A DNA stretch of 64,000 bases. It comes from Nemertoderma westbladi. Lineage: Eukaryota; Animalia; Xenacoelomorpha. The stretch spans positions 26,099 through 90,098 of the forward strand of contig JAUCBJ010007234.1 of the NCBI GenBank assembly GCA_032718475.1, in the 5' to 3' direction. The position numbers were made by a program, and so were the translations under genes. Below, piece after piece: positions 22,400 through 52,539 of the stretch; positions within the stretch are counted from its first letter, which is position 1; every line of letters starts with the position of its first letter. The notes under the pieces are model-generated. The model ran no database searches. It was not told the DNA's origin and worked only from the letters and a program-made list of their open reading frames with translations.

Positions 22400-22464
22400 A
22401 TGTGGTGATTATCAACAACTAAATCGACAGACAAAACCTGACAGATATCCTATGCCTCATATAG

Positions 22465-25890: not shown

Positions 25891-27087
25891 TGTTCGCGCT
25901 TTCAGACCTTTGGCAGTTTAACCCACCAAATTAAGATGTCTTCTAGATATTAAATCGGTTTTTAGTCTATGACAAGTATTTGATTCACTACACTAGTCGA
26001 AACCAATCTGTGCGCGATCATTCACCCGCTGGATATTATTCCCAGGAGATTGGGTTCGACGGTTTAATTTTATTGCTATGTAAGCCTAATGTATTATTCG
26101 ACTGACAGTACTATATAATCTCTGACAATATTATTCACCTTCGGTAATATTAACAGTTCCTTTAGGACGTGGCGCTTTATCTATATAAACAGAGTTATGA
26201 CTTAAACTACTCACAACGATCTGGCTTAATTATAATTCACATATATGGCGCATTCTTTAGGAATTGCTTCTTTAACAGACTCACTCATACACAATGCTGC
26301 ACAATACTGCACACTAATCTGCCAATCTTCACTGATTTTAGTCACATATAAAAGGAACACAGACTGACTCATGTAGGGTTTATCAAATAACATTAGATTC
26401 ACTTCAAACCACTTTAACATAAGTCACAATCGTTTATCTGTAACCCTTCTCTCTTACCTTTGGTATATCAAGAATATTGGGTTTCGGGGTTATTTATCGT
26501 TATTCCAAATATAATAATTCATCAACCATATTATGAAGAACTGACGGTAAATAGCAGTATAAAACAACAATGAAAACACTGATTGTTATGAGTTTGCAAT
26601 GTTTCAGCAGTCAGTATGTATGATCAGTTAGCAGTTAAAGGATATATGTCCTTGTAATTAAACCTACTAGTGTAAGACTAAAAACTGAAACACGGAGGTG
26701 CCAAAAGCCGGTTCTTAGGCTCTGAGCAAAAACATAACACTGAACTACTGAGTTTCTGTATATACCTCCAACACAGAGATAACAAACGCTCTGATTGGTC
26801 AACCTGAACAACGAGAGAACAGAGAAACAAAGAAACGTCGACGTGGCAATATCAGCTGCTAGCCGTCGTCATGGTAGCGACACTGTTTTCAAGAGTATCG
26901 AGCTTTTACGTCACGGAATTACGGATTATGTCCTCTAAAGTACAAATACAGAAGAAATAGCTTTTATGTCCGCTAAAACACCAGTACAGCAAGGACACGG
27001 CCCTTTTATGCCTGGTAAACCAACTACAGAGTATTTTACGGGAAAAATAAGGAAAAATAACCGGACAATTCAGCAAAAGCTTTTACA
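25891..27087 (-). repeat. 3' LTR of BEL element A
   Basis: Direct repeat of 36484-37688 with few differences; preceded by the PPT on the minus strand. Confidence 0.95.
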
Positions 27088-30000
27088 CCGCTCCCAGAAA
27101 ATGGGATTTTCAGTCTATAAAATATAAAAATCACAGTTTCTAAAACATAAAGATACTCTAAACAGTTAGTCTTTCTTGCGCGGACGGCGTTTACGCAGTT
27201 TTTTAAAGCTAGCAAGAGTCATTTTCTCTTTGGGGGAAGCCACTTTACTAGGAGGGCCATAACTCCTGGGTGAAGGGTGCAATATGATTGCATTAAAAGG
27301 TTTGGGTTTACGGTCGGTGTCTCGTCCATTTCGATATGCTTCTCCTCGAGCTGATTTTCCTCCGCTTGTCATGGGATACGTTCGTCCAAAACTCTCGCAG
27401 AGAATAGGGTTTTCTAAGCTTGATATCTTCTTTGAGATTCGAGGTTTCCCAATCGAACTGAGATAAGGCCAATTTGTTTATCGATTGGACTTACTGTTGT
27501 AACTTACGTTTATCTGAACAAACGCAGGTTTCTTTTTGATCTTTATAGAATAGCGTTTAACTCGTTTCGTACAACGCTCTCCTTCACTTTGATGAAGGGT
27601 TGTATCGCGTTAAACGGGACGACCATACGGTTGGATAATGATATTAGGTGTCTGCGTCATAATCCAGCTAGGTAAGATGGGCGGCTAGCTAGAAATCACT
27701 GTCGGAGTGTTACCGATTAATTGTTAGGGTAGCACTAGATCTTTGAACAGTGAATACAGTCCGCGAGGATCCGCGACACCACCAGGATCGCAGGTCTGAG
27801 GTCCAACTAAGGAATGAGGAGGTTTGACCGAGTATTCCGGGACTCTGATCGTAGGTTTACTCCAGGATCGTTCGAGCCGAGTGAGCATAGGTGATACGTC
27901 AACAAGTTTCGGTTTACATGGATGTTTATGTCTTTCCGTTTATTATTTGGGTCTAGGGCGTTTATCGTAATAATACCAAAGACGCACGTCTGGTAGGGTA
28001 AACGCGGGTGACATTTATTTGTTGTTACAATGCTTCTATCAAGAATTCCAAATATACTTTGGAGTTACCGCGTCCATTTGTTTCTTTAGTGTCTTTTCTT
28101 TCGAGCCGATTTCGAATAGAATTTTCGCATTCGAATTTCAGTTTATGGTTCCGACTCCGCTGGGCAGGATATATAGTCGACATAGTCCGTATTGTGTAAA
28201 TCGATAGGATGACCAGTAGTTAAGAAGACCATATACGTACCATTACGCTGCGTATATCGAGCAGCGAATTTTCTATAGTCCAACTCGCGCGCGGGCTGCT
28301 CTTGGGACATTGGCGGTTCGATATAACGACCATAGTCCTCCGCAGCAGTTGGACTAACGTCGCCGCGTATTAAGCTATCAACAAACGCTTGCAAAAATAG
28401 AGTATATCGCTCCCCGATACCAAGACCATCTTCTATCAACTCCGTCATATCTGCTATATATGAGTTTATCCATATTATAATGAGTTTATATTTAGGCGAG
28501 CGGGCGTCGCTGCCTACCCCAATCAACCCCGGACAGTACGAGATCCTCAGCGCCGATGTGTCGTCGCCGCTGTACTTTCGCCAACGACGTAGCCGCACAA
28601 CGACAACGACAACCGACACAAGTCACTCGACTGTCCGTCCCAAAGACTTAGATGTACTTCAGGTTTTCCTTGGAGAGTTAGGTTACTTTTACGATTGCGA
28701 CTAGCTACTGTAAACACACCTTAGCAGTAACATTCACCTATAAACTCACAAATACCACACACACAACTTGTCACAAATTACACACATTCGGGCCATTTGT
28801 CCGTTAGTCAATGCCTTCCAGAATGTCACTGTATTATTATGTATCCTTGGATACTAGTGCACTATTTATTCCCTATGCTATTCAATGGGACAAGCTTTCT
28901 ATTGTTCTTTTAACTCAATTCTAATTCTAGCGTGGTTGTTGCTATGGTGACATTATGCAAAGCTAGCGGTAGAATTAGAGCAATTCCAATGCATACAGAT
29001 CTGGGATGTTATTTAATAGTATTCTTTAATAGTCAATGTTCTGTTTTATACATGACTTTATGAATTTTATCGGCTATTGACTATGTTTGGGAGACTTTCG
29101 CACACTCATACACATAATAAGATAAATCTCCGCTCCCTTGATCTATTAATTAATGGAATTTTGGGAATGTTATAAATTGCGTAAAAATGGCAATTTATTA
29201 AATTCATTAAAAGGCATGAATTTAAATTTATTCCCTGAAATTTTATTATTTGATAATTAAATTGACATATTTTGATTCTAGAATATGTCTGGGGACACAA
29301 GATCCTTAATTCTATGACAATTGTCTTTTTAAGAATATCGGTAAATGCTACGATATCTTAATTGACTAGAATTGCTGAAGGATCTGAATTTTACAGATTT
29401 TGATTTATTAGATTTGCAAATATTAAATAATTAATATTTGAGATGGGCACCGATTTATTCCAGAACTTGTCTGGGGACGTTAACCACTGATTCTAGAATT
29501 TGTCTTTCAAGTATATCGGTGGGTGCCGCGATATCTTAATCGACTAGAATTACAGATGGTCAAAGGGTTTAACAGATTTATTTTGCGTTATACGCTACTG
29601 TTAAAGGGACATCACGCTACTATATGTATTATTTAATATACGGTATGAGAGCAATATCGCACGAAGCAATGTCAGTGTGAAGAGGCAAGTCGTTTCCAAG
29701 GTCTACCCAGAGCTTGATTTAGCCGAGACACGAGGATCTGAACTTTGCATTCCTAATACTCTGCCTACCAATAATACTTAAATATAGTAGTGGCTTTATT
29801 GTACTTTAATAAGTACGGACATTTCATCTTACTGTAGTTACGTATTTATAATAGAATACGAGCAGTAAGGAAAGAGAAAAATAATTATTTCTCGCCGTCG
29901 CACTAAATATAATATAAGTAATTACGTACGCAATAAACACGAATATATTGCACTATTCTACTAAATAATCGCTAAATAATATTCTACTGAATAAAATTAA

Positions 30001-30100: not shown

Positions 30101-31225
30101 TTACGTTATGGAGTCCCTAGATGTTTGAAGGATTAGGGAGGTGGTCGTGGGAAGAGAATCTTGCCTTCCACAGTTTCCGGAGAGTCCTCCATTCCCTTCC
30201 GATAAACACAAACGACCGACTGGGTGATTGAGTCGCTGCATCCTGAATACAATTCCAGGTTTCCTCTTCGTCCTGGAATAGTGACGATAGAAACATCGCT
30301 CAAAGTATATGACGGCGTCACAAAGCCGATTCCAGGAGCTATAGTGGTCCGTCGCTCTCTGTAGGAGAGGTGAGAGTCCCTGCGAGACGTCTGATGTTCC
30401 AGAGCTCCAATCGCTCTCTCTGATCTTCATGAAGGATCCACTCGCGGAGGGGAGGCCCAGATCCACGGCGTCGTCCCTGGCAACATGTAATACCGACAGA
30501 TCTATCCCGGGTTCAAATAACTCCGATCCACCCGTCCGGGTTTCAGGTTCGACTTTCTCCGCTCCCTTGGCTGGTCTAATCTCAGTCGGAGTAAGATGGG
30601 GAGGCCATTCATTCTCCTTACTCAGGAAGTCGGGTTCACCTAACCGATCTATAGTATCTGTTAGTTCTTGAGGAGTTGCTCCTCTGGAAGCGATGTCCGT
30701 TGGATTAAACTTCTTGGGGCAATATCTCCATTGATCTACATTGGAGCTAAGATTGTCATTATCTGAGGAGTGTGGTGTTCCCTCAGTTGGGTCGTCTCCC
30801 TCACTAGTATCGTCTTCCCATTCACTCACCTGGCAGACGCGATCTTGAAGCAGTCTTTCCCTGAGCGTTCTACGGGAAGGTCCAGTAAGGTACCAACCTA
30901 CTCTAGTTCTTACCGCATAGGTCTGTAGTGGCTGCGGTTGAGCAGGCCGTTTCTCTAATGTCTCCAGCGCCTCATGCGCGTTTTGGCCGATGAGTATTTG
31001 CACTCCAGGATAATCAGTCTGGAATCGAGGTATGCTAAGATGTTGGATGCTCTCATCCTCGTCCCAATTATAAAGGTCTGCTTGAGTAGTAGCGAAGTTC
31101 TTTATAGCCACCATTTTCACTGACCTTATGCTATGTTCTCCTAGTTCGTCCTGGGGGGTGGACAACTCACCTATATAATAGTCGGCAGCCACAGCAGATT
31201 TCCAAACCTGCATGATCCCTGACAT
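30101..31225 (-). pseudogene. BEL pol remnant (protease C-terminus fused to RNase H tail)
   Basis: ILIGQNA..YAVRTRVGWYLTGP jumps directly to QWRYCPKKFNPTDIASRG and YSSWNRL. No YVDD RT motif and no integrase. Confidence 0.8.
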
Positions 31226-34200
31226 GTTTAGCTTGGTTCGGAACTTGGGTTGTCCAGCAAAGATGTGCTAGTTCTTTATCGATGAATGTTCCTGTGCTAC
31301 CGGAGTCCAGGAGGGCGTTCACTATATAGCTCTTCTGAGGTCCGTGGACCTGTAACTGGACTACAGGAAATTCTCGGATTCCTATATTGGAAGTTGGAGC
31401 TTTCCAAGATGGTTGTTGATCGGAAGTAGTTAAGGTAAGGTCGCTGTCTGTGTCTTTCTCATACACAAGTGCTCGATACACTGCGGTGGTGTTTATTAGG
31501 TAACAGGATTCGTTTTGGTCGGAGAACTCGTCCGTATAGAATCCTTCCATCTCAGATTGATCAGTGTCGTTCACATCACTGAATTGGACATGTAGTTCGG
31601 ACTCACTTACCTGACTCGGGCTGTTTCGTTCGAATTCCGTGTGCAACAAGATATGATGTTTTGCGCCGCACTTTGCACACCTTGCGTCGGAGTTACAGGT
31701 TCGCCGTTGGTGTCCTCGTCTGAGGCAATTATAACACAACCGCTTATCCCACATGACTTCACGTCTATCCTTTAGTGATTTCCTCAGGAATTTATCACAC
31801 GCATTTAAACGGTGGGGCCCGTCGCACAGCACACATTTCGGCTTGATGTTACTTACTTTAACCTGTGCTATGTGGTGCACACTTGTTCTTTCCTCGGGCT
31901 TTCTCACCTGAATTCTTTTAGGAGACGTAGGAAGGGTTTTTTGTACCGGTTCCCTTCTGTCATTGGGTCGAGACTCGGATTTACTTACCTGATCTTTAGG
32001 CATTTTATTGACATAATAAGATCTGTCAGTGTCTTTCCCGCTGTCCTCTCCTTGAGAAGTTTGGCTTTCACCGTCGTCGGTATAACATACTGGTGTTACC
32101 CTTCTCCTAGAAACGGGTTTCTCACTTACCTTGTTTTCCAATGTCTTCTCTCTGGACTGCCTTAGGAGCTGTAATTTCACTTCTCCATCTAAGAATGACA
32201 TGAGATCAGCCATGGTAGGGTCTCGTCGTCGTTGTTCCATCATATATAACACTTTCTTATCCCAGCGTGTACCTACTCCACCCTTCGGTAAAGCAGAAGC
32301 CACTGCTCTAATAACCATAGCACTCTGATACTCATGAGACTTACCTAGCCAATCTAATTGTCTGCAGATCTCCTGAATTTCATCGGAAAACTCTATAATC
32401 CCGCTGCTAATAAACTTTCGGGGCGCTACCAACTTTGCATACAAATACCCAGCTATGTTATTCCTATTACCATACCTGATGTTTAGTGTATCCCAAACTT
32501 GTCTTAATCCGTCTGGATGTCCAATAAACCTTAACGCCATTAACTTGGGAGATCCTTCCAAGCACTCGATGAGGTATCTAAGTTTTTCTCCATTAGATAG
32601 TACAGAGTTCTGTATATTATCTTTGTAATATTCATTAAAAGGTAACCATTTCATCTCATCTCCATTGAACTTAACGATCTCTCCCACCTTTACCGCTTGC
32701 CGGGCTTCGGTTCTAGCCATTTGACGCGTAAAACTTTCTTGAACCATCGTGTTATTTAATATCGAGTTATCGGTATATAAATTTCTCGGATTATGATCAG
32801 TTCTATAGGGAATGTCATTATCAACAGGTCTATAATTACCCTTAATAGGGTTCACTATAGGAGTTTCTACTTCGCTAGCAGTATATATGCGTGTAGGCTC
32901 CACACCTTGCGCATGCGATACTTCAGACCTAACAGGTTGACACATTGTTACAGAGGGTGGTGGTATACCCCTTTGAGTATTTACTAATTTATCGCGTTCG
33001 AGCGCGATACTTTGCTGCACTTCTTGCAACTCTAGTCTACTTTCCCTTACTGTGCCCTTGAACTGCTGGACAGTCTCCTGCATCTGTCCGAGCAGGATAT
33101 CCATCCCCCGTCGTCTCTCGTCCACCCATTCGACCGCCAAAGCGGGAGTCGCCAACGTTGTAGCGGGCGGACGAGGGACAACGGGCGACAAATCTGGAAT
33201 ATTTCGCTCGGAGTCCAGGGTATGCACTGTCTCATGGACTGTTCTGTTGGGCACAGGTAGCTTAGTGCTGTGCAAAGGGAATTGAGAAGTAGGTTCAGGG
33301 AGTACAGGTGTCTCTACGACCGAAAGGGTAGCTTCGGGAACAGGCCTAATTATTTCAGGCTCATCTACTATAGTAGGGAGTCTCTCTATTGTAATTATTT
33401 GGTCTGTGGGTTCTGTACTACCTACTTTGGTGTTATTTAGTTGCCTTCTAACAGCTGGAGGCAAATCAGGCAATTTCTGCCGGTGGAATGTTCTTTTACG
33501 TCTGCTTAGGCGAGATCGATTTCTTCCGCCTTCAGTGTCGGTGGTATCGCCTTCCTCAGATGATGTATATCCCTGTCTTTTGGGATTAGATCGATTCATC
33601 ATCTGCATATTACTAGCTGTTAACTGTTTATTTATGCAGTCTTGATTCTCCTGAATGTTTTCCAATTCTAATTGGGTGGTTTCTTCAGCCGCTTTCCGTT
33701 CTGCTTCTGCCACTTTTGCCTCTGCCGCTGCCTCTGCCTCTGCCGCTGCCTCTGCCGCTTTTGCCTCTGCCGCTGCCTCTGCCGCTTTTGCCTCTGCCGC
33801 TGCCTCTGCCGCTTTTGCCTTGGCCGCTGCCTCTGCCGCTTTTGCCTTGGCCGCTACCTCTGCCGCTTTTGCGTTGGCCGCTACCTCTGCCGCCTTTGCC
33901 TTGGCCGCTGCCGCCTTTCTTTCTGCTTCTGCAGCTACCACTGCTGCTTTCTTTCTGTCTTCTATGCGTTTTTTCTTTACTTGCTCTTCTTGGACTCGTG
34001 TCAGGCGGAGTTGTTCATCAAATTTGGCCTGATTCGCAGCCCTCATTTCCACATCGATGGCATCCAACACAAGCTTGGTTCCTTCACTATTAGGGCTAAG
34101 TCCCTCTAACCTTCTCCTCAACTCGTCATCACCTAAAAAACGTTGATAGTCTGACAGATAGATGTCAATGGCATCCCTCTTATGCGGTTTCTCTGCTGTC

Positions 34201-34259
34201 ACTTCGCTCTCGGTTGTATCTAGTAGACTGTCTGACAGGTTCTGCTTTGCGTCAGACAT
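31167..34259 (-). CDS. BEL/Pao Gag-protease with Ala/Glu/Lys repeat N-terminus
   Basis: KFNGDEMKWLPF..EKLRYLIECLEG (DUF1759-like); CVLCDGPHRLNAC, CYNCLRRGHQRRTC, CAKCGAKHHILLH knuckles; ALLDSGSTGTFI protease. Confidence 0.9.
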   Translation of the reverse strand: MSDAKQNLSDSLLDTTESEVTAEKPHKRDAIDIYLSDYQRFLGDDELRRRLEGLSPNSEGTKLVLDAIDVEMRAANQAKFDEQLRLTRVQEEQVKKKRIEDRKKAAVVAAEAERKAAAAKAKAAEVAANAKAAEVAAKAKAAEAAAKAKAAEAAAEAKAAEAAAEAKAAEAAAEAEAAAEAKVAEAERKAAEETTQLELENIQENQDCINKQLTASNMQMMNRSNPKRQGYTSSEEGDTTDTEGGRNRSRLSRRKRTFHRQKLPDLPPAVRRQLNNTKVGSTEPTDQIITIERLPTIVDEPEIIRPVPEATLSVVETPVLPEPTSQFPLHSTKLPVPNRTVHETVHTLDSERNIPDLSPVVPRPPATTLATPALAVEWVDERRRGMDILLGQMQETVQQFKGTVRESRLELQEVQQSIALERDKLVNTQRGIPPPSVTMCQPVRSEVSHAQGVEPTRIYTASEVETPIVNPIKGNYRPVDNDIPYRTDHNPRNLYTDNSILNNTMVQESFTRQMARTEARQAVKVGEIVKFNGDEMKWLPFNEYYKDNIQNSVLSNGEKLRYLIECLEGSPKLMALRFIGHPDGLRQVWDTLNIRYGNRNNIAGYLYAKLVAPRKFISSGIIEFSDEIQEICRQLDWLGKSHEYQSAMVIRAVASALPKGGVGTRWDKKVLYMMEQRRRDPTMADLMSFLDGEVKLQLLRQSREKTLENKVSEKPVSRRRVTPVCYTDDGESQTSQGEDSGKDTDRSYYVNKMPKDQVSKSESRPNDRREPVQKTLPTSPKRIQVRKPEERTSVHHIAQVKVSNIKPKCVLCDGPHRLNACDKFLRKSLKDRREVMWDKRLCYNCLRRGHQRRTCNSDARCAKCGAKHHILLHTEFERNSPSQVSESELHVQFSDVNDTDQSEMEGFYTDEFSDQNESCYLINTTAVYRALVYEKDTDSDLTLTTSDQQPSWKAPTSNIGIREFPVVQLQVHGPQKSYIVNALLDSGSTGTFIDKELAHLCWTTQVPNQAKHVRDHAGLEICCGCRLLYR

Positions 34260-35629
34260 GCTTATGTGTACAGTTGAATGTCTACTGCTGTATTACAGTC
34301 TGAGCAAGTCTAGTAACTCAGTATTAACTGCTAGCCTAGTAATTAATTACCGGTACTGCTACTCAGTGTAGCGTGATATATATATAATATATTAGAATAC
34401 CGGTATGCTTATAGTATATATAACTATTATTACAGACTAGGTTTATCACAGAATACCGGTATAATTTTAGCACAAATATATATAAATATATAATAGGCCT
34501 ATCGGAATACCGGTATACAGCTTACTGTTTGTAGTATATATAATTCTAGAATAGAATTAATTACAAGTACCGGTATAATTTCAGCCTAGATTTATAGAAA
34601 TAAGATAATAGGCCTATCGTAAATACCGGTATATCAATTATTTTAGAATAATTGAATTTCTGAACTTTAGGGTTACTTGGTTACTTTAACTTACTTTATT
34701 ACCGTTATTTAAGCAGTAATCCAACTGATATTGAGACCTAATGGTTTTATGGTAGGCCTACTATTTATAAATCGTTAGATTTGATTTATAATGTATTTAT
34801 ACCCGTTTTAATGGGTTTAGTCAATGTTTGAAATAAATGTTATTATTTCTGGGGTAATCACTACACAAAGCGGTGCGCTTTTTAGTGAAGTGTTACGTAT
34901 AGGACACTAAAACAAATAATTCTAATTTACCTAAGTTACTTAATACTACAAATTACGTACAATTCGGGTGAGATTACAATCTCTAAATAAACACAAAAAT
35001 TTACAAAAAAAAAACACAAAATACGAATTTTTAGGGTAATTTTACAAGAAGTCTACAAACCAGCCTAACAAAGGGTTAGATAACCGGTTATTACAACGGA
35101 CAGGGTACTACGGTATTTGAAATAATAAGTAGTAGTAAATACACTGCGTTGTCTAGATAGGAAAATACTACCGCCTGACGACCTATAGCCGTATCGCTAT
35201 AGGTTCTACATTATGTATCACGGAGTGTTCCTACCTAGAAGTTAATAGAGCTAATCGAATGTGCCTATCAACCACTTTACAACACAGATATAATGTCTAC
35301 AATAATTACTTCGGAAAGTACTGTACACTAAACCCTAAATTAGGTACGAGTACTTGTACAACAAATAATCAGTAGTTAAATATACTTGAACAGCTAAAAG
35401 AACCACGGCATCTGCTGGAGTGACCGATGCACAAAATCACCAGTCTTTACCTACGCCGAGCAGCCCGTGTAGTACCGGGGTTAATTTAACTATAGCGGTA
35501 TGTATAACAAACACAATTACTGTAGGAACAAACTTGGGGAATGAATGTTGCGGATAATCGCATAAACTCTGAATAATAAATATTACGCTACGCGTACAAA
35601 CCACTCAAACAAAATACAGACCGAACACT

Positions 35630-36140
35630 GACAGACTACTATCAAGCCTAAACAAACTACGGTATATGCAGACTCCGAAATGATTAGGGAGTATGCGCTC
35701 TAACCCAGTAGGGCGACTTATTCTTTAGTTGGGGGTTTACCTTACAGCGTTCGCTGCCCCTACTGCCTAACCGTACTTAATCGGACAGATGATCTACACA
35801 CGCGGCAATCCGTTCAGACCTAATAATAGCCAGACAACTATCCAGCCTACAAATTATCTAAGTAAAATTATACGCTACCCGTACAGACTTACACAAACAA
35901 AGTACAGACTAAACGATGGCAGACTACTCTCAAGCCTAAATAAACTACAGGACATGCAGACTCCGAAATGATTAGGGAGTATGCGCTCTAACCCAGTAGT
36001 GCGACTTATTCTTTAGTTGGGGGTTTACCTTACAGCGTTCGCTGTCCCTACTGCCTAATCGTACTTAATCGGACAGGTGATCTACACACACTGCAATTCG
36101 TTCGGACTTAACAGCAATCAGACAACAGCTCAGCCTACAA
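35630..36140. repeat. Tandem duplication (~288-bp period) in the BEL A 5' leader
   Basis: gactccgaaatgattagggagtatgcgctc... occurs at 35671 and 35959. Confidence 0.85.
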
Positions 36141-36483
36141 ATCGTCTGTACAATCTGATCAGGCTTACACGCCTTCTGTTCAATACTGGCCTACAAATAA
36201 ATAAAACTTGACAGAAATAAGTAAAATCTCAATAAAAAATCAGGGCGGCCGTTCCCTGATTAAGTACTAAGACCTACCGGTATACAACAATCAAATCAAA
36301 TAATACTAGTGTACTTATACGGAAGTACCGGTTAGGACAGCTAGGCCTACGGAATACAGAAGTACCGGTTCTAGCGGTTGGGCCTACTGACTACTGACCT
36401 ACAGATGTACCGGTTCAGGTTTACCGGTTGACCGGTACTTTCAACTTTATTGCTTACTGCAACAAAGAAGCTATATCCTTTAA

Positions 36484-37688
36484 TGTTCGCGCTTTCAGAC
36501 CTTTGGCAGTTTAACCCACCAAATTAAGATGTCTTCTAGATATTAAATCGGTTTTTAGTCTATGACAAGTATTTGATTCACTACACTAGTCGAAACCAAT
36601 CTGTGCGCGATCATTCACCCGCTGGATATTCCCGGGAGATTGGGTTCGACGGTTTAATTTTATTGCTATGTAACTATGCTATTGCTATGTAGTATTATTC
36701 GACTGACAGTACTATATAATCTCTGACAATATTATTCACCTTCGGTAATATTAACAGTTCCTTTAGGACGTGGCGCTTTATCTATATAAACAGAGTTATG
36801 ACTTAAACTACTCACAACGATCTGGCTTAATTATAATTCACATATATGGCGCATTCTTTAGGAATTGCTTCTTTAACAGACTCACTCATACACAATGCTG
36901 CACAATACTGCACACTAATCTGCCAATCTTCACTGATTTTAGTCACATATAAAAGGAACACAGACTGACTCATGTAGGGTCTATCAAATAACATTAGATT
37001 CACTTCAAACCACTTTAACATAAGTCACAATCGTTTATCTGTAACCCTTCTCTCTTACCTTCGGTATATCAAGAATATTGGGTTTCGGGGTTATTTATCG
37101 TTATTCCAAATATAATAATTCATCAACCATATTATGAAGAACTGACGGTAAATAGCAGTATAAAACAACAATGAAAACACTGATTGTTATGAGTTTGCAA
37201 TGTTTCAGCAGTCAGTATGTATGATCAGTTAGCAGTTAAAGGATATATGTCCTTGTAATTAAACCTACTAGTGTAAGACTAAAAACTGAAACACGGAGGT
37301 GCCAAAAGCCGGTTCTTAGGCTCTGAGCAAAAACATAACACTGAACTACTGAGTTTCTGTATATACCTCCAACACAGAGATAACAAACGCTCTGATTGGT
37401 CAACCTGAACAACGAGAGAACAGAGAAACAAAGAAACGTCGACGTGGCAATATCAGCTGCTAGCCGTCGTCATGGTAGCGACACTGTTTTCAAGAGTATC
37501 GAGCTTTTACGTCACGGAATTACGGATTATGTCCTCTAAAGTACAAATACAGAAGAAATAGCTTTTATGTCCGCTAAAACACCAGTACAGCAAGGACACG
37601 GCCCTTTTATGCCTGGTAAACCAACTACAGAGTATTTTACGGGAAAAATAAGGAAAAATAACCGGACAATTCAGCAAAAGCTTTTACA
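36484..37688 (-). repeat. 5' LTR of BEL element A
   Basis: Direct repeat of 25891-27087. Confidence 0.95.
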
Positions 37689-39200: not shown

Positions 39201-39314
39201 TTTTTGTACATAGTTCATCTGTATTTTTGAGTCAGATTTGTCAGAAACCGAGATTTCGTGACTTTTCCTACAATTTACTATCCAAAATAGCAAACGCCAT
39301 TTATGTGGCTATAG

Positions 39315-42142: not shown

Positions 42143-42682
42143 TGTTAGCTTATTCAATCCCGCCAACACCCCATAAAGTTATAAGCCGATAAGCAATATT
42201 GGGAGCCACGAGATTGGGCAATTAACCAACTCGTGCCATCCCAATAAGAGTGGGAAGGAAGCACACAACAAGGGTCAGGGGCCAAACCCGTAACCCAGAG
42301 GAAATAGGTGGAGTGAACGGGAACACTTCAGAGGGCGCCAACAAGGGTATTAACCAATCAGAGGGGGGAAAGGCATCGATTGAGTAGCAATAAGGCCACC
42401 GTGCAATATAACCAATAACCTATTAATCAGTGATTCAGTTATCTCAGTGCAGCAGTGCTAGCGTAGGTTGGTAGTCAATTAGTTTAGTTAGGGGATCACG
42501 GGACTTTAGTTACCGTATCCCACCTTGTACACATTATATCTATATCTATATCCTATGCCCTATTATTATTATACACCGAACTTCAGAACTCAGTTACTTT
42601 CTTTCATCCTTATACACGGCGGGGACGCGTGGACTAAATTACCACACCGGATAAATCGGGATCCCTCCTGGATCCCGTCACA
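42143..42682 (+). repeat. 5' LTR of BEL element B
   Basis: Direct repeat of 55805-56345. CCAAT (~42355), TATA-like (~42405) and TCAGT initiator-like (~42435) motifs. Confidence 0.95.
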
Positions 42683-42763
42683 GTAACTAAATCCGAGGAA
42701 GAAGCCCCAGTTGAACATCAAGAACTGCAGCCTAGCTAGCCGAACCATCAGCCACCAGTTGAG

Positions 42764-45127
42764 ATGAGTGAATCGGGCGAGACACCGACGCGGACCCCGG
42801 ACGAAGATCAAACGATCCGCGAGGCCGCGACCAAGCGATACAGGCCCACGACGCCGGAGCCATCGATAACGGGCGAACCGGAAGTCCAGAACGAGGAGGG
42901 TCTGGAACCCGAAGTCGAGCCAAAGGAAAGGGAGAGCGAGCCGGAGGGAGAAGGAGATGAGTCGACACGGAATGGAGAACGGCGCGCCGATGTCGCCGGC
43001 CAGCTACCGGCCGAGGGCGACGAGCGACCCACCGAAACGGCGACGGTGGGGCCGACGGTGCGACGCCGGACGCGAAGAGACGGAGGAGAGATCGGTACTG
43101 ATGTCGCCGGCCAGCTACAGGCCGAGGGCGACGGATGGCCCACCGGAATGGCGACGGTGGAGCCGCCGGTACGACGTCGAACCTGGAGGGACGGAGGAGA
43201 GGTCGGCGACGAGGACGTCGGGGTCTCCGATCGACTTCGACGGGCTTACATCGCGACCCGGAGACTACTAGAGAAGGCCAGGAAAGGGAAAACGGTAGAC
43301 GAGGTGAGACTGAGAAAGCGACTAGGTGAGTTGGATAGACACTTTAATTATCTAATACGTTTTGGGCAGAGAGAACTAGCCGAAACGAGAGCACGTGAGG
43401 TTGCCGGGGAACTGTTTGAACTATGGGAATGTGGGAGTATGGAACCTAGCGTAGCGTCAGTGTACATAGGGCCATACTTGGTCGATGCCCGGGGAGTAAA
43501 ACCAGTGGGTTGGAGGGGACTCGAAGGGGGCGAATCCGAGGTTAACCCCGAGGATTCGGCCTCGTCGGTCGGAGAAAGCTCCGGGAAGCGGGGGAAAGTT
43601 AGTAGGTCGGGAAGGCGGGGGAAGTCCGTCGTAACCGATAAGTCTGTTACATCCTCCGCGAAAGAAAGAGCGGTGAGAGAAATAGGTGCCGCATACCGTC
43701 TCAGCATGGCAGAGCAAGGTCAGAGAGAAATGGAGAAACGGCTAGAGGAGGGGAGAGTGCGGTTAGAGAGGGAAGCGGCATTGATTAAAGAAACCGGAGA
43801 GAGGGCCGAAAGGGCTTTGAAAAGCCTAAGGGAGTGTGATGAGATAGAGGAAAGGGAGTGTAGGGAGCGTGAGGCGAGAGAGGAAAGGGAACGCAAGGAG
43901 CGTGAGGCAAGGGAGGAAAGGGAACGCAAGGAGCGTGGAAGGGAACGCAAGGAATATGAGGCGAGAGAGGAAAGGGAACGCAAGGAGCGTGAGGCGGAAC
44001 GTAAGGAGTATGAAGCGAGAAGGGAAAAGGAACGCAAGGAGCGCGAAGTGAGACGAAGGGAGAGCATTAAGAGTGCAGCAGAGTCGGCCATCAGGGACAC
44101 CCAGGAGTGTGAGAGGAGACTGGCAGAGGCTGAAAAGGAGCACAAGGAATTAGAGAGACGGCAGAGTGAGTTTGCGGGAAATAGGATTAGACGGGAGCAC
44201 GAGTTGGAATTCGTACGAGCGACGCCGTCTGAAAGCGGGGCCGGCTCGAGTATTTTTGAGGAGCCGGAGGCCGTAGATACATTTATTAATACCCCACTGA
44301 CAGGTACCGCACGACAGACCCAAAACTGGTGCGACCGTACGGGCGGGGGGGGGGGGGGGGGTAATAATAATAATGGTACAGTAGACGTTGTTAATATTGA
44401 TAATACCGTATGGGACAACACTAATCAAACCTTTATTACAGGAAATACTTTGCCTAGTGGTAGTAATTTAAATTTAAATCAGAACAATCCCAATATTAAT
44501 GTAGGAAATAATTCTAATATTGATGTAGTTACGCAAAATAATTCAAATAATCAAAATAATAACCCAAGTTCGAACCTACAAAATAATTTAAATAACGCAG
44601 TTACGCAAAATAATTCGAATAATTTAAATAATGACCTATGCCCGAATTTACAAAATAATTCAGATAACGTAGTCGCGCAGAATAATACAAATGATTTTGT
44701 TTCAAACGAGCAAATTAATTCCGTTTCCAATATGGGTGCTATTAATGTAAACACGTCGGGCCTACATAACCAGGCGGAAGAGGGCCTGGTAGGTCACATA
44801 GTCGGTAGCCAGACGGATGAGGGCCTGGTAGGCCACGTAGATAGTAGACAGGGAGCAGAGGGCCTGGTAGGCCACGTAGTTGGTAGGCAGGGAGTAGAGG
44901 GCCTGGAAGGCCACGTAATAGCAGGGGGAGAGGCGGGGGTGAATAGACCCGACCGCAGTAGGGTTGATGTGTCGACTAGAGAGGTATATAATAGCGGGGA
45001 GAGAGGTAGCGAAGTTAGATGTAGCGAGTGGGGGGGGGGGGGGCTACGAGGACCCCATAACAGAGAGTTAGCGGCGAGAGGGGGGGGGGGGGGGGGCAGG
45101 GAGTGTCCCACAGCCGTCAGCGGATAA
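42764..45127 (+). CDS. BEL B ORF1: N-terminal Gag extension (Glu/Arg coiled coil, Asn-rich and GLVGHV repeats); probably continuous with ORF2
   Basis: 787-aa ORF starting ~80 nt after the LTR. The ORF2 frame is open from the poly-G at ~45080-45096. Confidence 0.8.
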   Translation: MSESGETPTRTPDEDQTIREAATKRYRPTTPEPSITGEPEVQNEEGLEPEVEPKERESEPEGEGDESTRNGERRADVAGQLPAEGDERPTETATVGPTVRRRTRRDGGEIGTDVAGQLQAEGDGWPTGMATVEPPVRRRTWRDGGEVGDEDVGVSDRLRRAYIATRRLLEKARKGKTVDEVRLRKRLGELDRHFNYLIRFGQRELAETRAREVAGELFELWECGSMEPSVASVYIGPYLVDARGVKPVGWRGLEGGESEVNPEDSASSVGESSGKRGKVSRSGRRGKSVVTDKSVTSSAKERAVREIGAAYRLSMAEQGQREMEKRLEEGRVRLEREAALIKETGERAERALKSLRECDEIEERECREREAREERERKEREAREERERKERGRERKEYEAREERERKEREAERKEYEARREKERKEREVRRRESIKSAAESAIRDTQECERRLAEAEKEHKELERRQSEFAGNRIRREHELEFVRATPSESGAGSSIFEEPEAVDTFINTPLTGTARQTQNWCDRTGGGGGGGNNNNGTVDVVNIDNTVWDNTNQTFITGNTLPSGSNLNLNQNNPNINVGNNSNIDVVTQNNSNNQNNNPSSNLQNNLNNAVTQNNSNNLNNDLCPNLQNNSDNVVAQNNTNDFVSNEQINSVSNMGAINVNTSGLHNQAEEGLVGHIVGSQTDEGLVGHVDSRQGAEGLVGHVVGRQGVEGLEGHVIAGGEAGVNRPDRSRVDVSTREVYNSGERGSEVRCSEWGGGGLRGPHNRELAARGGGGGGRECPTAVSG

Positions 45128-45203
45128 TGCAAGGGCCGAAATAGGTAAACCGCAACAACCGGCGACGGAAAGTAACAGGGGGATTGCGGGTATCCCCAGC
45201 GGC

Positions 45204-48200
45204 GTGCGACCGAGCAGAGAGAGACAGGTTGACGTCGCGAGAGGGCGGACGAAGCGTCGAGCCCGATCAGAGGAGGGAAGAAAAACAGTGGGGTTTAACC
45301 GGGAGGTCGATGAGAGATCTCACGAGCGGGAATATTCCACTGATAGGAGAAGAAAGGAAGACAGTAGTAGAAGTATCGCCGCGAACGATAGAAGAGCGAG
45401 GACGGATAGCGAGCCGTCGGTAGTCGAGATGAGAACGGAGAGTCAGTGGGGTCGGACTCCGGGAGATTGCCGTCGCCCCGGAGAGATGCGATCCGGTGAG
45501 ATGCATTACACGCCGAGAGAGGGGTACACGATGTACCGGTACGAAGATGAGGACAGAAGAGAGGGGGGTCGAAGAGAAACTTTCCGACGGAATATACCTG
45601 CCGATCGAGAATACGGTAGCCGCGGGGAGGATTATTCGAGAAGAATAAACTTCGATCCCGAGAGACACATGCAGACTGTAGGACATACTGTAGGCCTTAC
45701 TGCACATACCATAGGCCATATTGAGAGAGGCTATGTAAGCGATAGGATAGCGCGGACGACGGAATTAAGCCCGGAAGTCGCGGAATACATACCGGCGAGT
45801 AGGCCAGAAGCTGATAGGCCTATACCGGTACCAGCACAGCAGTATGACTACAGCATGCAGGGACATAACATATACCCAGGGGAGGGGGGAATTATTGCGG
45901 ATAGGTGCATGGGCCCCAACATATTAACATCAACCCCATTACCAAACATACCGGTGGGGGGGGGGGGACAGGGTGACATTCCCCCATCACAATATCAACA
46001 ATATACCCCGATGGTAGCAAGAACAACGAGACCCTTGGACGAAAACAGGTCGTGTGACACAGATATATGGAGGGGGCCGCTACCCCCGATGACGTACCCA
46101 AGCCAGAGAAAATCAAGAAATAGGACAGACGGAACGCACCAGGCAGGGGAAACTATACAGCACCCGTCGAATCCATTGGAAGCGCAGGCGATAGGGATGG
46201 CCACGTTGATCGATGCTTTGAAAACGAGGATCGAGTTACCACCCGTGGAACCATTCAAGTTCGATGGGAGTAGGCCGGAAGAATATTTGCAGTTTCGGCG
46301 AATGTATAGTAACGAAATACTAACAAAAAACTTGATGCAGGCGGAGTGCCTAAAGTATCTACAAGTGTACACGGGAGGCCCAGCATACGACATCGTGAGG
46401 CAATATCAGGGAATAGAGGGCGGCTTCACGACAGCATGGCGGGCACTGGATAGGGAATACGGGCACCCGGCCAAGATCATCAGGCAGACGCTGAGAGGCA
46501 TAACATCGGGTGGCCTACAGGATAACCCCGTTAGCATTAAGACGTTTGCAAACAAAGTCGAGAAAGCGCTGATCGTGCTGAAGACGCTAGACGCGCCATA
46601 CGAGCTCAACGCGTCCAATAACATCACCACGATAGCGCAGGCACTACCGAACTGGTTGCGCAACAAGTGGAGGAAGATCGCTTTCTCCACTCGAGACAAG
46701 AAGGGTGCGGAACCGGGTTTAGAAGAAATGTCAAACTTCTTAAATTACGAGGCTGAACTAATAACGGACCCAGTCTATAGTGAAGATAGCCTGGGAAAGG
46801 GACCAAAGACGGATCACTACAGGCCGAAACCAGAGCACAATACATCAAACGCATTGCCGAGGCTCAGGCAATCATTGCCATACACAGCGACGCAGGGGAC
46901 TGCAAGTCCACAGGCAAACGAAGATAAGACAACATCATGGAACGGACAGGGGAACAATAACAACATGAATAAACATAACCCCAGTACGTCCAGTAGGCCA
47001 AATCCAGTCAATAAGAATAGTAGGGACTTTGGTACGAATATAACTGCGATACGCAATGCATTGTATAAAGAGGGCTACGACCCAAAGAGCAAATGCCAGT
47101 TACACGCAAATGCGCTTCATAAAACCATGAACTGCAGGTACTGGCAGGCGCTACCGAGGCAAGACCAGATAGATTACGCGTCGAGCAATAAATTCTGCTC
47201 GCGATGTGTGAAGAGTGGACACAAGGCCAGGGAATGCCAAGAGAAGCCGGTCAAGTTTGGCCAAAGGAGAGGCCAAACGATGGCAACGAGCACGGTAGGG
47301 GCGAAGAAGAGAGGCACGGTGTTACTTGGAGTAGTACCGGTGCGAGTGATCGGGGAGGGCAATCGATCAGTAACAACACTAATGCTGGTTGATAGTGGAG
47401 CTGCCTTCACATTAGTCGAGGAATGGGTAGCCGAAGAAATAGGATTGAGAACAAGGCCAAGCAGAATGGCGGTAACAACCATCTCTAGCAAAGATGAGAT
47501 CCTAGAGATGAGGACAGGACGGTGCGCAATTGCAGCAGTGGCACCAGGATGCGATTATGGGGCAACCATCGACCCCATCCAAGTAATAGAGTCAATTAAC
47601 ATCAATGCCAGGCGGCCAACCAACATCGAGGTCGAGCAATACAAATTCCTGGACGACATTGACTTCTCGATCCCAGACGTGGACGTTAGGAAGGTATCCA
47701 TCATAGTAGGAATGGACTGCCCGACGGCCCACGAAAGAATGCAAACGGTCTTCGGCGAAGACAAGCAGAGTGACCCGGTGGCCATATTAACACCATTCGG
47801 GTGGACGCTGAGTGGTCCAATTAAGAGCAAGATACCATTCAGGATGTCGGAGACATCAGGATGCATGTTCGCGGGAACAATGCAGGAAATGGGTGATGAG
47901 GGAGCAGAGGAGCAGCTTAAAAGACTGCTCAGACAAGACTTTGAGGGACTGAAAGAGACCGGGGTCGGGACCTCGGTAGAAGACAAGCAGGCTCTACAAA
48001 GCGTGGAGGAATCGATGACGTGTGATGAGGGGCGGTATACAATAGGAATGGTATGGAAACTACCGAAGATACCGCTACCCGATAATAGAGGGATGGTAAT
48101 CACGAGACTCCGCAAGCTGAAACAAACACTAAAACGGAGCCCCGAGAAGAACGAGTACATTCACAAAACGATTAAGAAGTACGTCGAGAAAGGATGGGCC

Positions 48201-51200
48201 GTGGAGTTACCGGTCGACGAGCCGAACACGGACAGGACATACTACCTGCCACTCCACGTAGCTTTAGACCCAAAGAAAGGTAAACTTAGGATGGTAGTCG
48301 ATGCATCGGCAAAGACCGACGGAAAGTGCTTAAACGACTACCTACTAGAGGGCCCAAACATATACAATTCGGGCATAGAAGTACTACTTAGATTTAGGAA
48401 TGGGAAACACGCCTTCACGTGTGACATAGAAGGCATGTTCAACCAAGTCCGTGTAACAGAGGAAGATAGCGACAGTCAACGCTTCTTATGGTATAACGGC
48501 GAGGAAGAACCGCCTATAGTACCGGCATATAAGATGGTAGTACAAAACATGGGGGCCAAGTCGTCCTCATTTACGACGACTATGGCAGTGAGAGACACGG
48601 TGAAGGGGAAGGAAGATAGATACAGCAGTAGGGCCGTCGATATGATCCGACGCGGCTTCTACGTAGACGACGGTATGGAGTCTGGAAATACGGTTGAGGA
48701 GATACTGGAAACAGGGCGCGAGGTTCGCGACATCCTGAAAGGATCCGGCTTCAACCTGACCAAATTCCAATCCAGTTCAGAAGAATTTATCAAGGCAATA
48801 GAGGACAAGAAACCAGAATCGACCATGGACAACCCTACAACAGCCAAAGGACAGGACATGGCGAATAAGAGAACACAATCTCAGCAAAAGGCATTGGGAA
48901 TCGTGTGGGATAGAGGAACAGACGAACTGAAGTATCAGCTGAGCCAGGAGGGCGCAGACACCCATACGAAGAGGGGTTATGTATCGTATATAGCAAGGAT
49001 ATACGATCCCCTAGGCCTAGCATCCCCATTACTAGTCACGGGGAAACAGATACTCAAGAGAGTATTTAAATTGAAGGATGAGTGGGACGTAGAGGTACCA
49101 GAGGACATCAAGAAACAGTGGAGCAAATGGACAGGAGACTTGGAGAGGATGGGAACATACAACATGCCGCGAGCGTATTTCCCGGACGGGAACATGACGA
49201 ATCTGGACCTACATATGTTCTCCGACGCGTCGTTAGAGGCATACGGGGCGGCACTCTATTTAGTACAACGAGAGGGGCCTCACAAGCCCAGACTAGCCTT
49301 TAGCAAAGCTAAGTCAACGCCGCCAGATTCAGCATCTGTTCCCAAGTTAGAATTGACAGCTGCGAGACTAGGAGTTAGAGCCACAGCCTACCTAGTGGAT
49401 ACAATTCCCAACATAGTGGAGACACACTACTGGACGGACTCCATGGTAGTGCTTGGTTGGCTACACAACGAAAAGACGAGGTACCCGATATTCGTCGCGA
49501 ATAGAGTGGACGAAATAAGGGCGAGCACAGAACTGGAAAGGTGGCACTACTGCCCAACAGACGAGAACCCAGCGGACCTGCTGTCGAGGGGCGTGGAACG
49601 CCACACTTTCTTAAAGAAGGAAGTATTGTGGCAGCATGGGCCACAATTTCTGAGCGATAGAGAGGCCTGGCCGCCGATGAGGAAGGTGGACCCGGGCTCG
49701 GAACCAATATCAGAAGGAGAGGGAGATTCAGAGGGAGAAGAGATATACTCCCAGATGGTGAGGGAGATTAGGGACGTGCAACCAGGAAGGGAACTGTGCG
49801 ACAACCCGACGGATAAACTCCTCAGCTACAGTTCCAGTTGGTATAAGACCAAGAAACTAGTGGCGTACTGGAGAGCCTTTGGGAATTTCCTTGCGGGAGT
49901 CGGCAAGGACAAGAAGACCAGGATAACCATAGATCTGGAAGGAGCGGCCAAGGCAGTGATCCGCTATGAACAACGCAAGAACTACGGCGACGAGGTGGAA
50001 CGTGTCGGTAACCAACAGCACCTCCGACGGGATAGCGAGTTGATCACGCTGTCGCCACAACTCAACGAGGACGGGATTCTAGTAATGAATTCTAGGGTGG
50101 GATATAACAACAGTATAGTCGTGCCACCGAAACCCATCATCATTCCCACAGGATCGCCTATAGTCCACCAGATCATATGGGACTCCCACAAATCGATACT
50201 GCATGGGGGCACCAACCGAACCCTCACAGAGATAAGGAGGACCTATTGGGTCAAACAACTAAGGAAGAAGGTTAAAGCGGTAGTGGGGCAGTGCCAGACC
50301 TGCCGACGAGCGAAGAAGGAACGAGCCGTACAGGAGATGGCGCCACTACCGGCGAGTAGGGTAAGACAGCACGACCCGCCATTTACGCATTGCGGTGTGG
50401 ACATGTTCGGGCCGATAAAGATCAAGGTGATGCGACACACGGAGAAACGCTATGGTATTATCTCCGTATGCAACAATACGCGGGCGGTAGGGATAGAACT
50501 CGCCCAAGATGCAACCGCATCAGCATTCATTAACGCCCTAGAAAGGTTTAGGGACCGCAAAGGTGGGACGATCGCAGTGATATACAGCGACAACGGCACC
50601 AACTTTGTGGGCGCAGAGAGTGAGATGACAGAGGCCTTAGACATCTTGGAGGGAGAAGAAGTCAGGGCGGCCATGAGAAGACGACAAGTGAAGTGGGAGA
50701 GAAGGACGCCGTATGCACCACATACATTAGGATGCGTCGAGAGACTCGTGGGCAGTTCAAAACGTCTAATGACGAAGCTAATGAACACCAACATGGTCAC
50801 TGAGGACGTTTTACGGACAGTACTTGCGAAGTGCGAGGGGATCATTAATAGCAGACCGCTATATCCGGAGAATGATGACCCTGAGTCGTTAGACGTGCTG
50901 ACGCCTAGCCATTTCCTGATGGAAAGGCCAGCGACCATCGATATGCGGGGTGTAGACCCAGATGACATACACTCCCGCCAAAGTTGGAAAGTCGCTAAAG
51001 CAATAAGCGCAGAGTATTGGAGGAGGTGGGTCGAGGAATACCTACCCACGCTCCATAAGCGAAGCAAGTGGAGGAAGCCGAACAGGGAGTTAAGAGAGGG
51101 AGATCTCGTAATCGTTACGGATGATACTATCATCAACAACCAGTGGCGGTTGGCGAGAGTTGTACGCACTTACTCCGATGAGGACGGAAGAGTCCGATCG

Positions 51201-51296
51201 GTAGAAGTGCGAATAGGTGGGAAGATAGGTGCGAAGGACAGAAAAACCTACAGGAGAGCGGTAGGCAAATGCTGTCTCCTAGAAGGGGCACCTTAG
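45204..51296 (+). CDS. BEL/Pao Gag-Pol polyprotein (Gag, knuckles, protease, RT, RNase H, integrase)
   Basis: KFDGSRPEEY; CSRCVKSGHKAREC; LVDSGAAFTL; YYLPLH..KLRMVVDAS; DIEGMF; FYVDD; LHMFSDAS; HYWTDS; CPTDENPADLLSRG; H-H-CQTC; VDMFGP; YSDNGTNF; GCVERL; LTPSHFL; YWRRWVEEYL. Confidence 0.96.
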   Translation: MRPSRERQVDVARGRTKRRARSEEGRKTVGFNREVDERSHEREYSTDRRRKEDSSRSIAANDRRARTDSEPSVVEMRTESQWGRTPGDCRRPGEMRSGEMHYTPREGYTMYRYEDEDRREGGRRETFRRNIPADREYGSRGEDYSRRINFDPERHMQTVGHTVGLTAHTIGHIERGYVSDRIARTTELSPEVAEYIPASRPEADRPIPVPAQQYDYSMQGHNIYPGEGGIIADRCMGPNILTSTPLPNIPVGGGGQGDIPPSQYQQYTPMVARTTRPLDENRSCDTDIWRGPLPPMTYPSQRKSRNRTDGTHQAGETIQHPSNPLEAQAIGMATLIDALKTRIELPPVEPFKFDGSRPEEYLQFRRMYSNEILTKNLMQAECLKYLQVYTGGPAYDIVRQYQGIEGGFTTAWRALDREYGHPAKIIRQTLRGITSGGLQDNPVSIKTFANKVEKALIVLKTLDAPYELNASNNITTIAQALPNWLRNKWRKIAFSTRDKKGAEPGLEEMSNFLNYEAELITDPVYSEDSLGKGPKTDHYRPKPEHNTSNALPRLRQSLPYTATQGTASPQANEDKTTSWNGQGNNNNMNKHNPSTSSRPNPVNKNSRDFGTNITAIRNALYKEGYDPKSKCQLHANALHKTMNCRYWQALPRQDQIDYASSNKFCSRCVKSGHKARECQEKPVKFGQRRGQTMATSTVGAKKRGTVLLGVVPVRVIGEGNRSVTTLMLVDSGAAFTLVEEWVAEEIGLRTRPSRMAVTTISSKDEILEMRTGRCAIAAVAPGCDYGATIDPIQVIESININARRPTNIEVEQYKFLDDIDFSIPDVDVRKVSIIVGMDCPTAHERMQTVFGEDKQSDPVAILTPFGWTLSGPIKSKIPFRMSETSGCMFAGTMQEMGDEGAEEQLKRLLRQDFEGLKETGVGTSVEDKQALQSVEESMTCDEGRYTIGMVWKLPKIPLPDNRGMVITRLRKLKQTLKRSPEKNEYIHKTIKKYVEKGWAVELPVDEPNTDRTYYLPLHVALDPKKGKLRMVVDASAKTDGKCLNDYLLEGPNIYNSGIEVLLRFRNGKHAFTCDIEGMFNQVRVTEEDSDSQRFLWYNGEEEPPIVPAYKMVVQNMGAKSSSFTTTMAVRDTVKGKEDRYSSRAVDMIRRGFYVDDGMESGNTVEEILETGREVRDILKGSGFNLTKFQSSSEEFIKAIEDKKPESTMDNPTTAKGQDMANKRTQSQQKALGIVWDRGTDELKYQLSQEGADTHTKRGYVSYIARIYDPLGLASPLLVTGKQILKRVFKLKDEWDVEVPEDIKKQWSKWTGDLERMGTYNMPRAYFPDGNMTNLDLHMFSDASLEAYGAALYLVQREGPHKPRLAFSKAKSTPPDSASVPKLELTAARLGVRATAYLVDTIPNIVETHYWTDSMVVLGWLHNEKTRYPIFVANRVDEIRASTELERWHYCPTDENPADLLSRGVERHTFLKKEVLWQHGPQFLSDREAWPPMRKVDPGSEPISEGEGDSEGEEIYSQMVREIRDVQPGRELCDNPTDKLLSYSSSWYKTKKLVAYWRAFGNFLAGVGKDKKTRITIDLEGAAKAVIRYEQRKNYGDEVERVGNQQHLRRDSELITLSPQLNEDGILVMNSRVGYNNSIVVPPKPIIIPTGSPIVHQIIWDSHKSILHGGTNRTLTEIRRTYWVKQLRKKVKAVVGQCQTCRRAKKERAVQEMAPLPASRVRQHDPPFTHCGVDMFGPIKIKVMRHTEKRYGIISVCNNTRAVGIELAQDATASAFINALERFRDRKGGTIAVIYSDNGTNFVGAESEMTEALDILEGEEVRAAMRRRQVKWERRTPYAPHTLGCVERLVGSSKRLMTKLMNTNMVTEDVLRTVLAKCEGIINSRPLYPENDDPESLDVLTPSHFLMERPATIDMRGVDPDDIHSRQSWKVAKAISAEYWRRWVEEYLPTLHKRSKWRKPNRELREGDLVIVTDDTIINNQWRLARVVRTYSDEDGRVRSVEVRIGGKIGAKDRKTYRRAVGKCCLLEGAP

Positions 51297-51404
51297 AGTG
51301 GAGTTAGAGTGGAGTTTAGTCGTCCAAGTTTTGGACTGAAGGGGGGTGGGATTGAGGGCGAGACGCCCTTCCCACACAAATAAAATAAAAATAAAATAAA
51401 AAAT

Positions 51405-52055
51405 AGTTAGTTAGTTAGTAGGTACGTAGTGCCTAGAGTTAGTTAGTTAGTAGGTACGTAGTACCTAGAGTTAGTTAGTTAGTTAGTAGGTACGTAGTGC
51501 CTAGAGTTAGAGAGTTAGTAGGTACGTAGTACCTAGAGTTAGTTAGTTAGTAGGTACGTAGTGCCTAGAGTTAGAGAGTTAGTAGGTACGTAGTACCTAG
51601 AGTTAGTTAGTTAGTAGGTACGTAGTGCCTAGAGTTAGAGAGTTAGTAGGTACGTAGTACCTAGAGTTAGTTAGTTAGTAGGTACATAGTGCCTAGAGGG
51701 TTAGTAGGTACGTAGTACCTAGAGTTAGTTAGTTAGTAGGTACGTAGTACCTAGAGTTAGAGAGTTAGTAGGTACGTAGTACCTAGAGTTAGTTAGTTAG
51801 TAGGTACGTAGTACCTAGAGTTAGAGAGTTAGTAGGTACGTAGTACCTAGAGTTAGAGGGTACGTAGTACCGCTAGTTAGAGTTAGAGTTAGAGGGTACG
51901 TAGTACCACCAGTTAGAGTTAGAGTTAGAGGGTATGTGGTACCGCTAGTTAGAGTTAGAGTTAGAGGGTACGTAGTACCGCTAGTTAGAGTTAGAGTTAG
52001 AGGGTACGTAGTACCGTTAGTTAGAGTTAGAGGGTACGTAGTACCATTAGTTAGA
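51405..52055. repeat. Minisatellite between pol and ORF3 (agttagtaggtacgtagtacctag variants)
   Basis: Seen directly; units of ~30-39 bp. Confidence 0.95.
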
Positions 52056-52539
52056 AGAGAGAGAGTAAGAGGTAAAAGGGGTAAATAGGATATAGATATT
52101 AGTTAGCAGTAAGTAGAGTTAGTAGCGAGAGGGGGGCATATGAGTACAGCTGGGTAAATCGTGTGGCCACACGACGTATACTGCTGTACTGCATAGGCCC
52201 ACAAAGTAGGCCAGAATATGGATTAGAGAATAGAATAATCCATAGGCAGTAATAGGTAGTAGGACAGTAGAATTAAAATAAATAGAATAGGGCTGAAAGT
52301 TAGAAATAGTGGCAACACAAGGGAAGTCGTTCTAGAACATAATAAAAGTAACGGACAGAAATTGTAAATTAGGCTCATTTACTAGCTTCAAAATTAATTA
52401 GGTTAAATTTAGGCTAAAAGGCGCAATTAAGTAGAAAGTAGGCCATTATCGAACCGTACGAAACATCTTAATACATCACTCATCTGTATTGCGCCTTGGT
52501 AAGGCACCACCCTGCAGGTGAGCGAGTGTAGTGTTCGGA

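Follow-up and report, generated by a model that had tools for sequence, protein, structure and literature searches.

A primer-binding position complementary to its own LTR points to self-priming in a BEL/Pao retrotransposon

BEL/Pao retrotransposons are treated by the ICTV as Belpaoviridae, with an 18-nt primer-binding site (PBS) for host tRNA-Arg or tRNA-Gly, and the same account calls their replication poorly understood (PMC8742986). Self-priming is described for the Tf1/sushi elements and predicted for the Tcn1 group and the Copia TAR lineage (available text of PMC6317226). In Tf1 and Tf2 of Schizosaccharomyces pombe, Tj1 of S. japonicus, Tf1/sushi and Tcn1 there is no tRNA site; the PBS is complementary to RNA derived from the element's own LTR, and the reverse transcriptase (RT) frees the primer (partial texts of PMC4600332, PMC5341516, and PMC6317226). 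Tj1 and Tf1 take their primer from the mRNA's 5' end (PMC4600332, in part), and the Tf2 RT cuts the self-primer from the mRNA (PMC5341516, in part). For the plant TAR lineage of Ty1/copia (Houba, Osr-1), self-priming was predicted from complementarity between PBS and LTR; this case lies outside Tf1/sushi, so self-priming appears to have arisen more than once (PMC6317226, available text). As for BEL/Pao itself, the main text, as available, of the BEL surveys PMC3118150, PMC554778, and PMC6238403 does not use the term PBS, and their supplements could bear on priming; the available parts of PMC3601003, PMC8220671, PMC6934838, and PMC5443660 contain nothing on BEL priming. Our literature search, which did not extend to Repbase notes or to subscription papers such as those first describing Suzu and Cer, found no report of BEL/Pao self-priming. 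Cer7 of Caenorhabditis elegans, a BEL/Pao element, encodes its own primer, as a tRNA-like insert and not as an LTR segment. The core of a Tf1-type self-primer measures about 11 nt.

We analyzed a stretch of DNA of 64,000 nucleotides (the window), which contains two BEL/Pao elements, A and B. Element A is a young, non-autonomous BEL/Pao retrotransposon on the minus strand (37688-25891), with the 5-bp target duplication TACTC on both sides. Judged by sequence comparison, A probably primes reverse transcription with its own LTR-derived RNA instead of a host tRNA, a reading to which we give a probability of roughly three in four (0.76). Its features are as follows.

36484..37688, minus strand: 5' LTR of A, 1205 nt, TG...CA, 98.4% identity with the 3' LTR
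25891..27087, minus strand: 3' LTR of A, 1197 nt, with a second copy of the 12-mer at 26646-26635
27088..27097, minus strand: purine-rich tract adjoining the 3' LTR
31167..34292, minus strand: gag of A, with DUF1759, three zinc knuckles, and the protease motif LLDSGS
30101..31267, minus strand: pol remnant of A, the end of the protease region fused to the segment after RNase H
36472..36483, minus strand: primer-binding position of A, 12 nt, TTAAAGGATATA, with no TGG and no spacer after the 5' LTR
37236..37247, minus strand: candidate primer core, 12 nt of the 5' LTR (LTR nt 442-453) exactly complementary to the primer-binding position
37250..37256, minus strand: primer-side strand of a second helix from duplex prediction, 7 bp including one G-U
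36462..36468, minus strand: PBS-side strand of the second helix, from duplex prediction
37340..37399, minus strand: candidate promoter from a motif scan, with CCAAT at 37399, TATATA at 37365, and initiator-like TCAGT at 37352 and 37344
37053..37058, minus strand: consensus splice donor downstream of the complement
36659..36664, minus strand: sole AATAAA in A's LTR, 571 nt past the complement

With its TG...CA LTR pair, purine tract, target duplication, and BEL-type gag and protease, A has the traits of a BEL/Pao element. The segment after RNase H is the sole remainder of its BEL-type RT-RH-IN region, which is otherwise lost: no RT, RNase H, or integrase was found in A. Contigs of the public run X1 cover the whole of A at similar depth and leave the flank uncovered, so A looks like a multi-copy non-autonomous family. 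The likeness to the Belpaoviridae of the ICTV extends to a triple zinc knuckle Gag, a protease, the pol order PR-RT-RH-IN, TG...CA LTRs, and a purine tract, whereas the tRNA PBS of that family is missing from A, from B, and from 12 fetched elements. Of the traits of the Tf1/sushi group, A has a PBS complementary to its own LTR and lacks the Ty3/gypsy chromovirus polyprotein, its Pfam domains being BEL specific. In how it would prime, A is like Tf1; it is not a member of the Tf1/sushi group. Tf1 and Tj1, which are Ty3/gypsy elements, use a 5'-terminal primer, whereas the match of A lies about 90 to 100 nt from its inferred start; the TAR elements differ in being Copia elements of plants.

An earlier note on this DNA had claimed that no TGG or tRNA PBS follows the 5' LTR of A and that the LTR contains a perfect complement of the 12 nt found there. 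Both claims are borne out: TTAAAGGATATA adjoins the LTR without a gap, and its exact complement occurs in the whole window only at 37247-37236 and 26646-26635. The expected chance of such a match, by LTR base composition, is 3.6e-4. A 12-nt match was reached in 0 of 1000 dinucleotide shuffles of A, with offsets of 0 to 8 nt and one intron permitted, and in none of 47 foreign LTRs combined with A's primer-binding position. When the whole LTR was scanned for duplexes, the match site ranked best (-19.6 kcal/mol for the whole duplex; runner-up, -15.9), and the prediction adds a second helix of 7 bp beyond a 2x3 loop, in which 37256-37250 pairs with 36468-36462. The 12-nt feature of A is real, and it is very likely functional as a primer site.

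The CCAAT and TATA-like motifs that the note had placed upstream of the complement were found 152 nt (CCAAT) and 118 nt (TATATA) away from it, and from these promoter motifs transcription would start about 90 to 100 nt upstream of the match. Upstream of the match, the LTRs of A and B share three motifs: ACCAATCAGAG, a TATA-like word, and TCAGT. That the match is transcribed is strongly indicated for the intron-type relatives described below and is inferred from motifs for A. The predicted fold of A's whole leader lacks the helix (pairing probability, 0), and forcing it costs 3.4 kcal/mol, long-range fold predictions of such leaders being weak. In the same fold the PBS is engaged, through several G-U pairs, by a U-rich stretch at LTR nt ~352-362, adjacent to the inferred start; as a Tf1-like primer this stretch would be a weak alternative, and it fell outside the five best duplex sites. 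A primer made by splicing was also considered for A and B and rejected, with no spliced match of at least 6 nt above the scan threshold; the self-complements of both elements are contiguous and are not formed across a GT-AG intron. The window and the loci together contain just five tRNA genes, a number too small to weigh, with best matches of 4 to 8 nt, and an Rfam search of the window gave 0 matches.

Among the X1 contigs over A's family no change is listed at the PBS or the complement, changes at contig ends being unlisted, and no covariation within the family is visible in them. One of these contigs is a rearranged LTR variant in which a 52-nt island (37234-37285) comprising both primer-side helices is kept, with a gap of 62 nt on one side and a replaced upstream portion on the other; as a single contig this is a weak observation.

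Element B lies on the plus strand (42143-56345) and has a purine tract and a BEL-type RT-RH-IN region. Its features are as follows.

42143..42682, plus strand: 5' LTR of B (3' LTR at 55805-56345, 97.6% identity; no target duplication)
42683..42694, plus strand: primer-binding position of B, with no TGG
42505..42513, plus strand: 9-nt complement of B's primer-binding position, followed by a 1-nt bulge and 3 bp
45072..51296, plus strand: gag-pol of B, an open frame of 2074 aa with Peptidase_A17, DUF1759, DUF5641, and an integrase zinc domain
52522..55089, plus strand: extra ORF of B after pol, with an EXD2/WRN-type 3'-5' exonuclease domain and zinc knuckles

The match of B taken alone is marginal, being reached in 5 of 2000 shuffles when anchored and in 42 of 2000 under the full statistic. 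B, which lacks a target-site duplication, may be a recombinant. A further frame of 795 aa (42740-45127, plus strand), charged and coiled-coil-like and without a Pfam match, lies upstream of gag-pol and overlaps it.

Other BEL elements were compared in the same manner. Public contigs scanned with a BEL RNase H-end pattern gave at least 117 metagenome loci (80 with flanks), and the same pattern in genome bins gave 66 loci, 59 of them BEL, from whose bins 42 more regions were added. Most loci were left out of the comparison because they had no usable 5' LTR end, as were duplicates and sister copies such as L216. The non-TGG elements scored comprise all nine whose LTR end is fixed by two LTR copies (A, B, L121, L122, L125, L139, L162, L182, and L222) and five with one LTR, whose end was set by eye (L024, L047, L051, L133, and L215). 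Among the matches listed, a self-complement of 11 to 12 nt is present in 12 of these 14 elements, A and B being counted among the 14, that is, in 7 of the 9 with two LTR copies and in 5 of the 5 with an end set by eye; the exceptions are B (9 nt) and L222 (8 nt). In TGG (tRNA-type) elements the longest self-complement among the matches listed is 4 to 8 nt in 44 of 44 (34 rows, 33 of them distinct, with 4 to 7 nt, and 11 more with 4 to 8 nt). When LTRs were swapped, an element's own score was matched 0 times for 11 of the 12 elements with 11 to 12 nt and once in 47 for L133. The 14 non-TGG elements have 14 different core sequences. On other BEL elements, the covariation test proposed in the earlier note came out in favor of its idea that this BEL lineage self-primes. 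The self-complement is offset from the LTR end by 0 to 8 nt, compared with a spacer of 0 to 7 nt before the TGG in tRNA-type BEL elements; the note's further point, that pairing ends exactly at the LTR boundary, thus holds for A and does not extend to the relatives. By eye, no self-complementary site was found in the near relative L008. No BEL element was found in viral contigs, and broad genome searches by family returned almost nothing new.

In 10 relatives the match of 11 to 12 nt comes about only if a consensus GT-AG intron of 76 to 1022 nt within the LTR is spliced out, implying that the match works as RNA. This points to a primer that is transcribed and not 5' terminal in these elements. 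L222 has the same intron layout with one mismatch. L125 has a contiguous 11-nt match (L125 5836-6155) and is nested among the intron-type relatives, and it is likely a case of intron loss. In the sister families L139 and L182 the exon end and the PBS change together, from TAA/TTA to CAC/GTG. Most relatives also have a second short helix beyond a bulge, with the G-rich and C-rich strands swapped between families; here an element's own partner strands scored better than permuted ones (p 0.002) and better than random windows of the LTR (p 0.002), in windows picked after the data had been seen and with one sister pair included. The note's suggestion that the mechanism may differ from that of Tf1 is strengthened accordingly, since in the BEL elements the pairing continues beyond the core on its 5' side and the core itself, in the 10 relatives, lies across a splice junction.

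In a tree of RT-RNase H sequences (44 rows, 20 of 64 having been dropped), the 12 fetched elements without a tRNA PBS (self-type elements) form one clade (91/96), which also contains proteins from fish, echinoderms, a hemichordate, a hydrozoan (cnidarian), and a scallop (bivalve). B falls just outside this clade, in a polytomy with the TGG-type element L076. A has no RT by which to be placed and forms a long unplaced branch in a tree of gag/protease pieces; when its post-protease piece is compared, six self-type elements and B make up the seven best matches. A may be a sister lineage of the self-type clade or an independent case. With A unplaced and B outside the clade, the relatives are analogues and not proven kin of A.

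Priming of A by its own LTR RNA would proceed as follows. The match and the second short helix would anneal to the primer-binding position; the RNA would be cleaved where the duplex ends on its 3' side, as the Tf1 RT does; and the new 3' end would be extended into U5, with RT and RNase H supplied by an autonomous partner. Such a primer would carry a long 5' tail. Primers are normally annealed by nucleocapsid protein. If a self-made internal primer is true, it would represent a further origin of self-priming, in animals and with a geometry unlike that of Tf1. Self-priming predicts RNA on strong-stop DNA ending at one known base, it explains why PBS finders fail on these BEL elements, and in the relatives it ties splicing to retrotransposon copying.

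Which RNA molecule would supply the primer is a separate question. A short LTR-internal transcript, spliced and polyadenylated in the intron-type relatives, might anneal in trans to unspliced genomic RNA and be trimmed to the duplex, a variant of self-priming that we consider possible and rather short of probable. Priming in cis needs the 5' copy to be spliced and the 3' copy to be unspliced in one RNA, which argues for trans, and both LTR copies retain the intron exactly in four of five tested pairs (the donor in five of five), an intron survival that a trans-acting short spliced LTR transcript explains better for the intron-type relatives. It would also fit the AATAAA that 9 of 11 intron-type elements have 0 to 33 nt past the match, the predicted leader folds, which give a strong cis helix in B but in no more than 3 of 10 relatives, and the exonuclease ORF of B. 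Against it stand the sole AATAAA of A, 571 nt downstream, the lack of any AATAAA after the match in B and L125, and the exonuclease profile, which matches none of the 12 fetched self-type elements. With the poly(A) signal so far off, a cut in the genomic RNA itself is simplest for A, and we lean toward it over a separate LTR transcript, whose prospects for A we put at somewhat below even. Tentatively, the elements may be drawn together as a large, mostly aquatic BEL/Pao branch without tRNA priming, whose LTR-internal primer, usually assembled by the spliceosome, would prime the unspliced genome in trans, with A and B as intron-less versions; a spliced primer acting in trans would, if true, place reverse transcription under splicing control.

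The remaining explanations do without self-priming. The pairing could be a structural or regulatory switch, serving dimerization, packaging, translation, or poly(A) control, with something else as the true primer, and long-range pairings of this kind occur in retroviral leaders. We regard this as unlikely: the pairing occupies the site where TGG elements have their PBS, its spacers span the same range, it is confined to elements lacking TGG, and no other primer site is seen. The primer might instead be half of a host tRNA or another small RNA, the LTR match being incidental, and certain Copia lineages are described as using half-tRNAs as primers (PMC6317226, available text). A host primer would keep one core in all elements, which is what the TGGTCCTTCG group shows, whereas the cores of the 14 elements are all different and the LTR of each element tracks its own core; this explanation is therefore quite improbable. 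Chance in AT-rich DNA could draw on the length of A's LTR, on its 37% GC, and on the weak match of B taken alone, but with 0 of 1000 shuffles for A and non-TGG elements cleanly separated from TGG elements it was already disfavored and is scarcely credible. Self-priming by LTR-derived RNA thus remains our preferred reading for A.

The exonuclease ORF of B deserves mention in its own right. A profile of this ORF and 22 relatives matches EXD2 (E 1.7e-9), the WRN exonuclease, and CCHC proteins in the PDB; a structure model from the single sequence has a pLDDT of 33, too low to be informative. Captured exonucleases occur in LTR elements of rotifers. The exonuclease of B could trim the primer. It was rejected as a required part of priming, its profile matching BEL loci of another lineage but not the self-type elements. 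ORFs like it sit after pol in other BEL loci (L235, L238, and L241).

Further observations concern the surroundings and the sampled contigs. The long 5' leader of A contains a 288-nt tandem duplication at 35603-36147. A small ORF in the 3' part of A (28143-28622, minus strand) has no Pfam match, and 10 of the 13 changes listed in one X1 contig fall at third codon positions, a pattern that suggests purifying selection on a putative accessory gene of the non-autonomous family. Not included in the TGG/non-TGG statistic is a BEL element of 15 kb (L249 7425-7780, L250 4449-4804) whose site is of the TGG type and whose pol is followed by several additional ORFs. Among the genome contigs L119-L184, the 59 of 66 motif matches in prokaryote genome bins that are real BEL sequences indicate that such bins contain animal host contigs, the motif being that of an animal retrotransposon. 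Elsewhere in the window, Pfam matches identify mobile-element fragments at 20148-22418 (minus strand), 37848-39230 (plus strand), 56910-57728 (plus strand), and 61257-62213 (minus strand), comprising an RT, two integrase cores, and a DNA polymerase B fragment.
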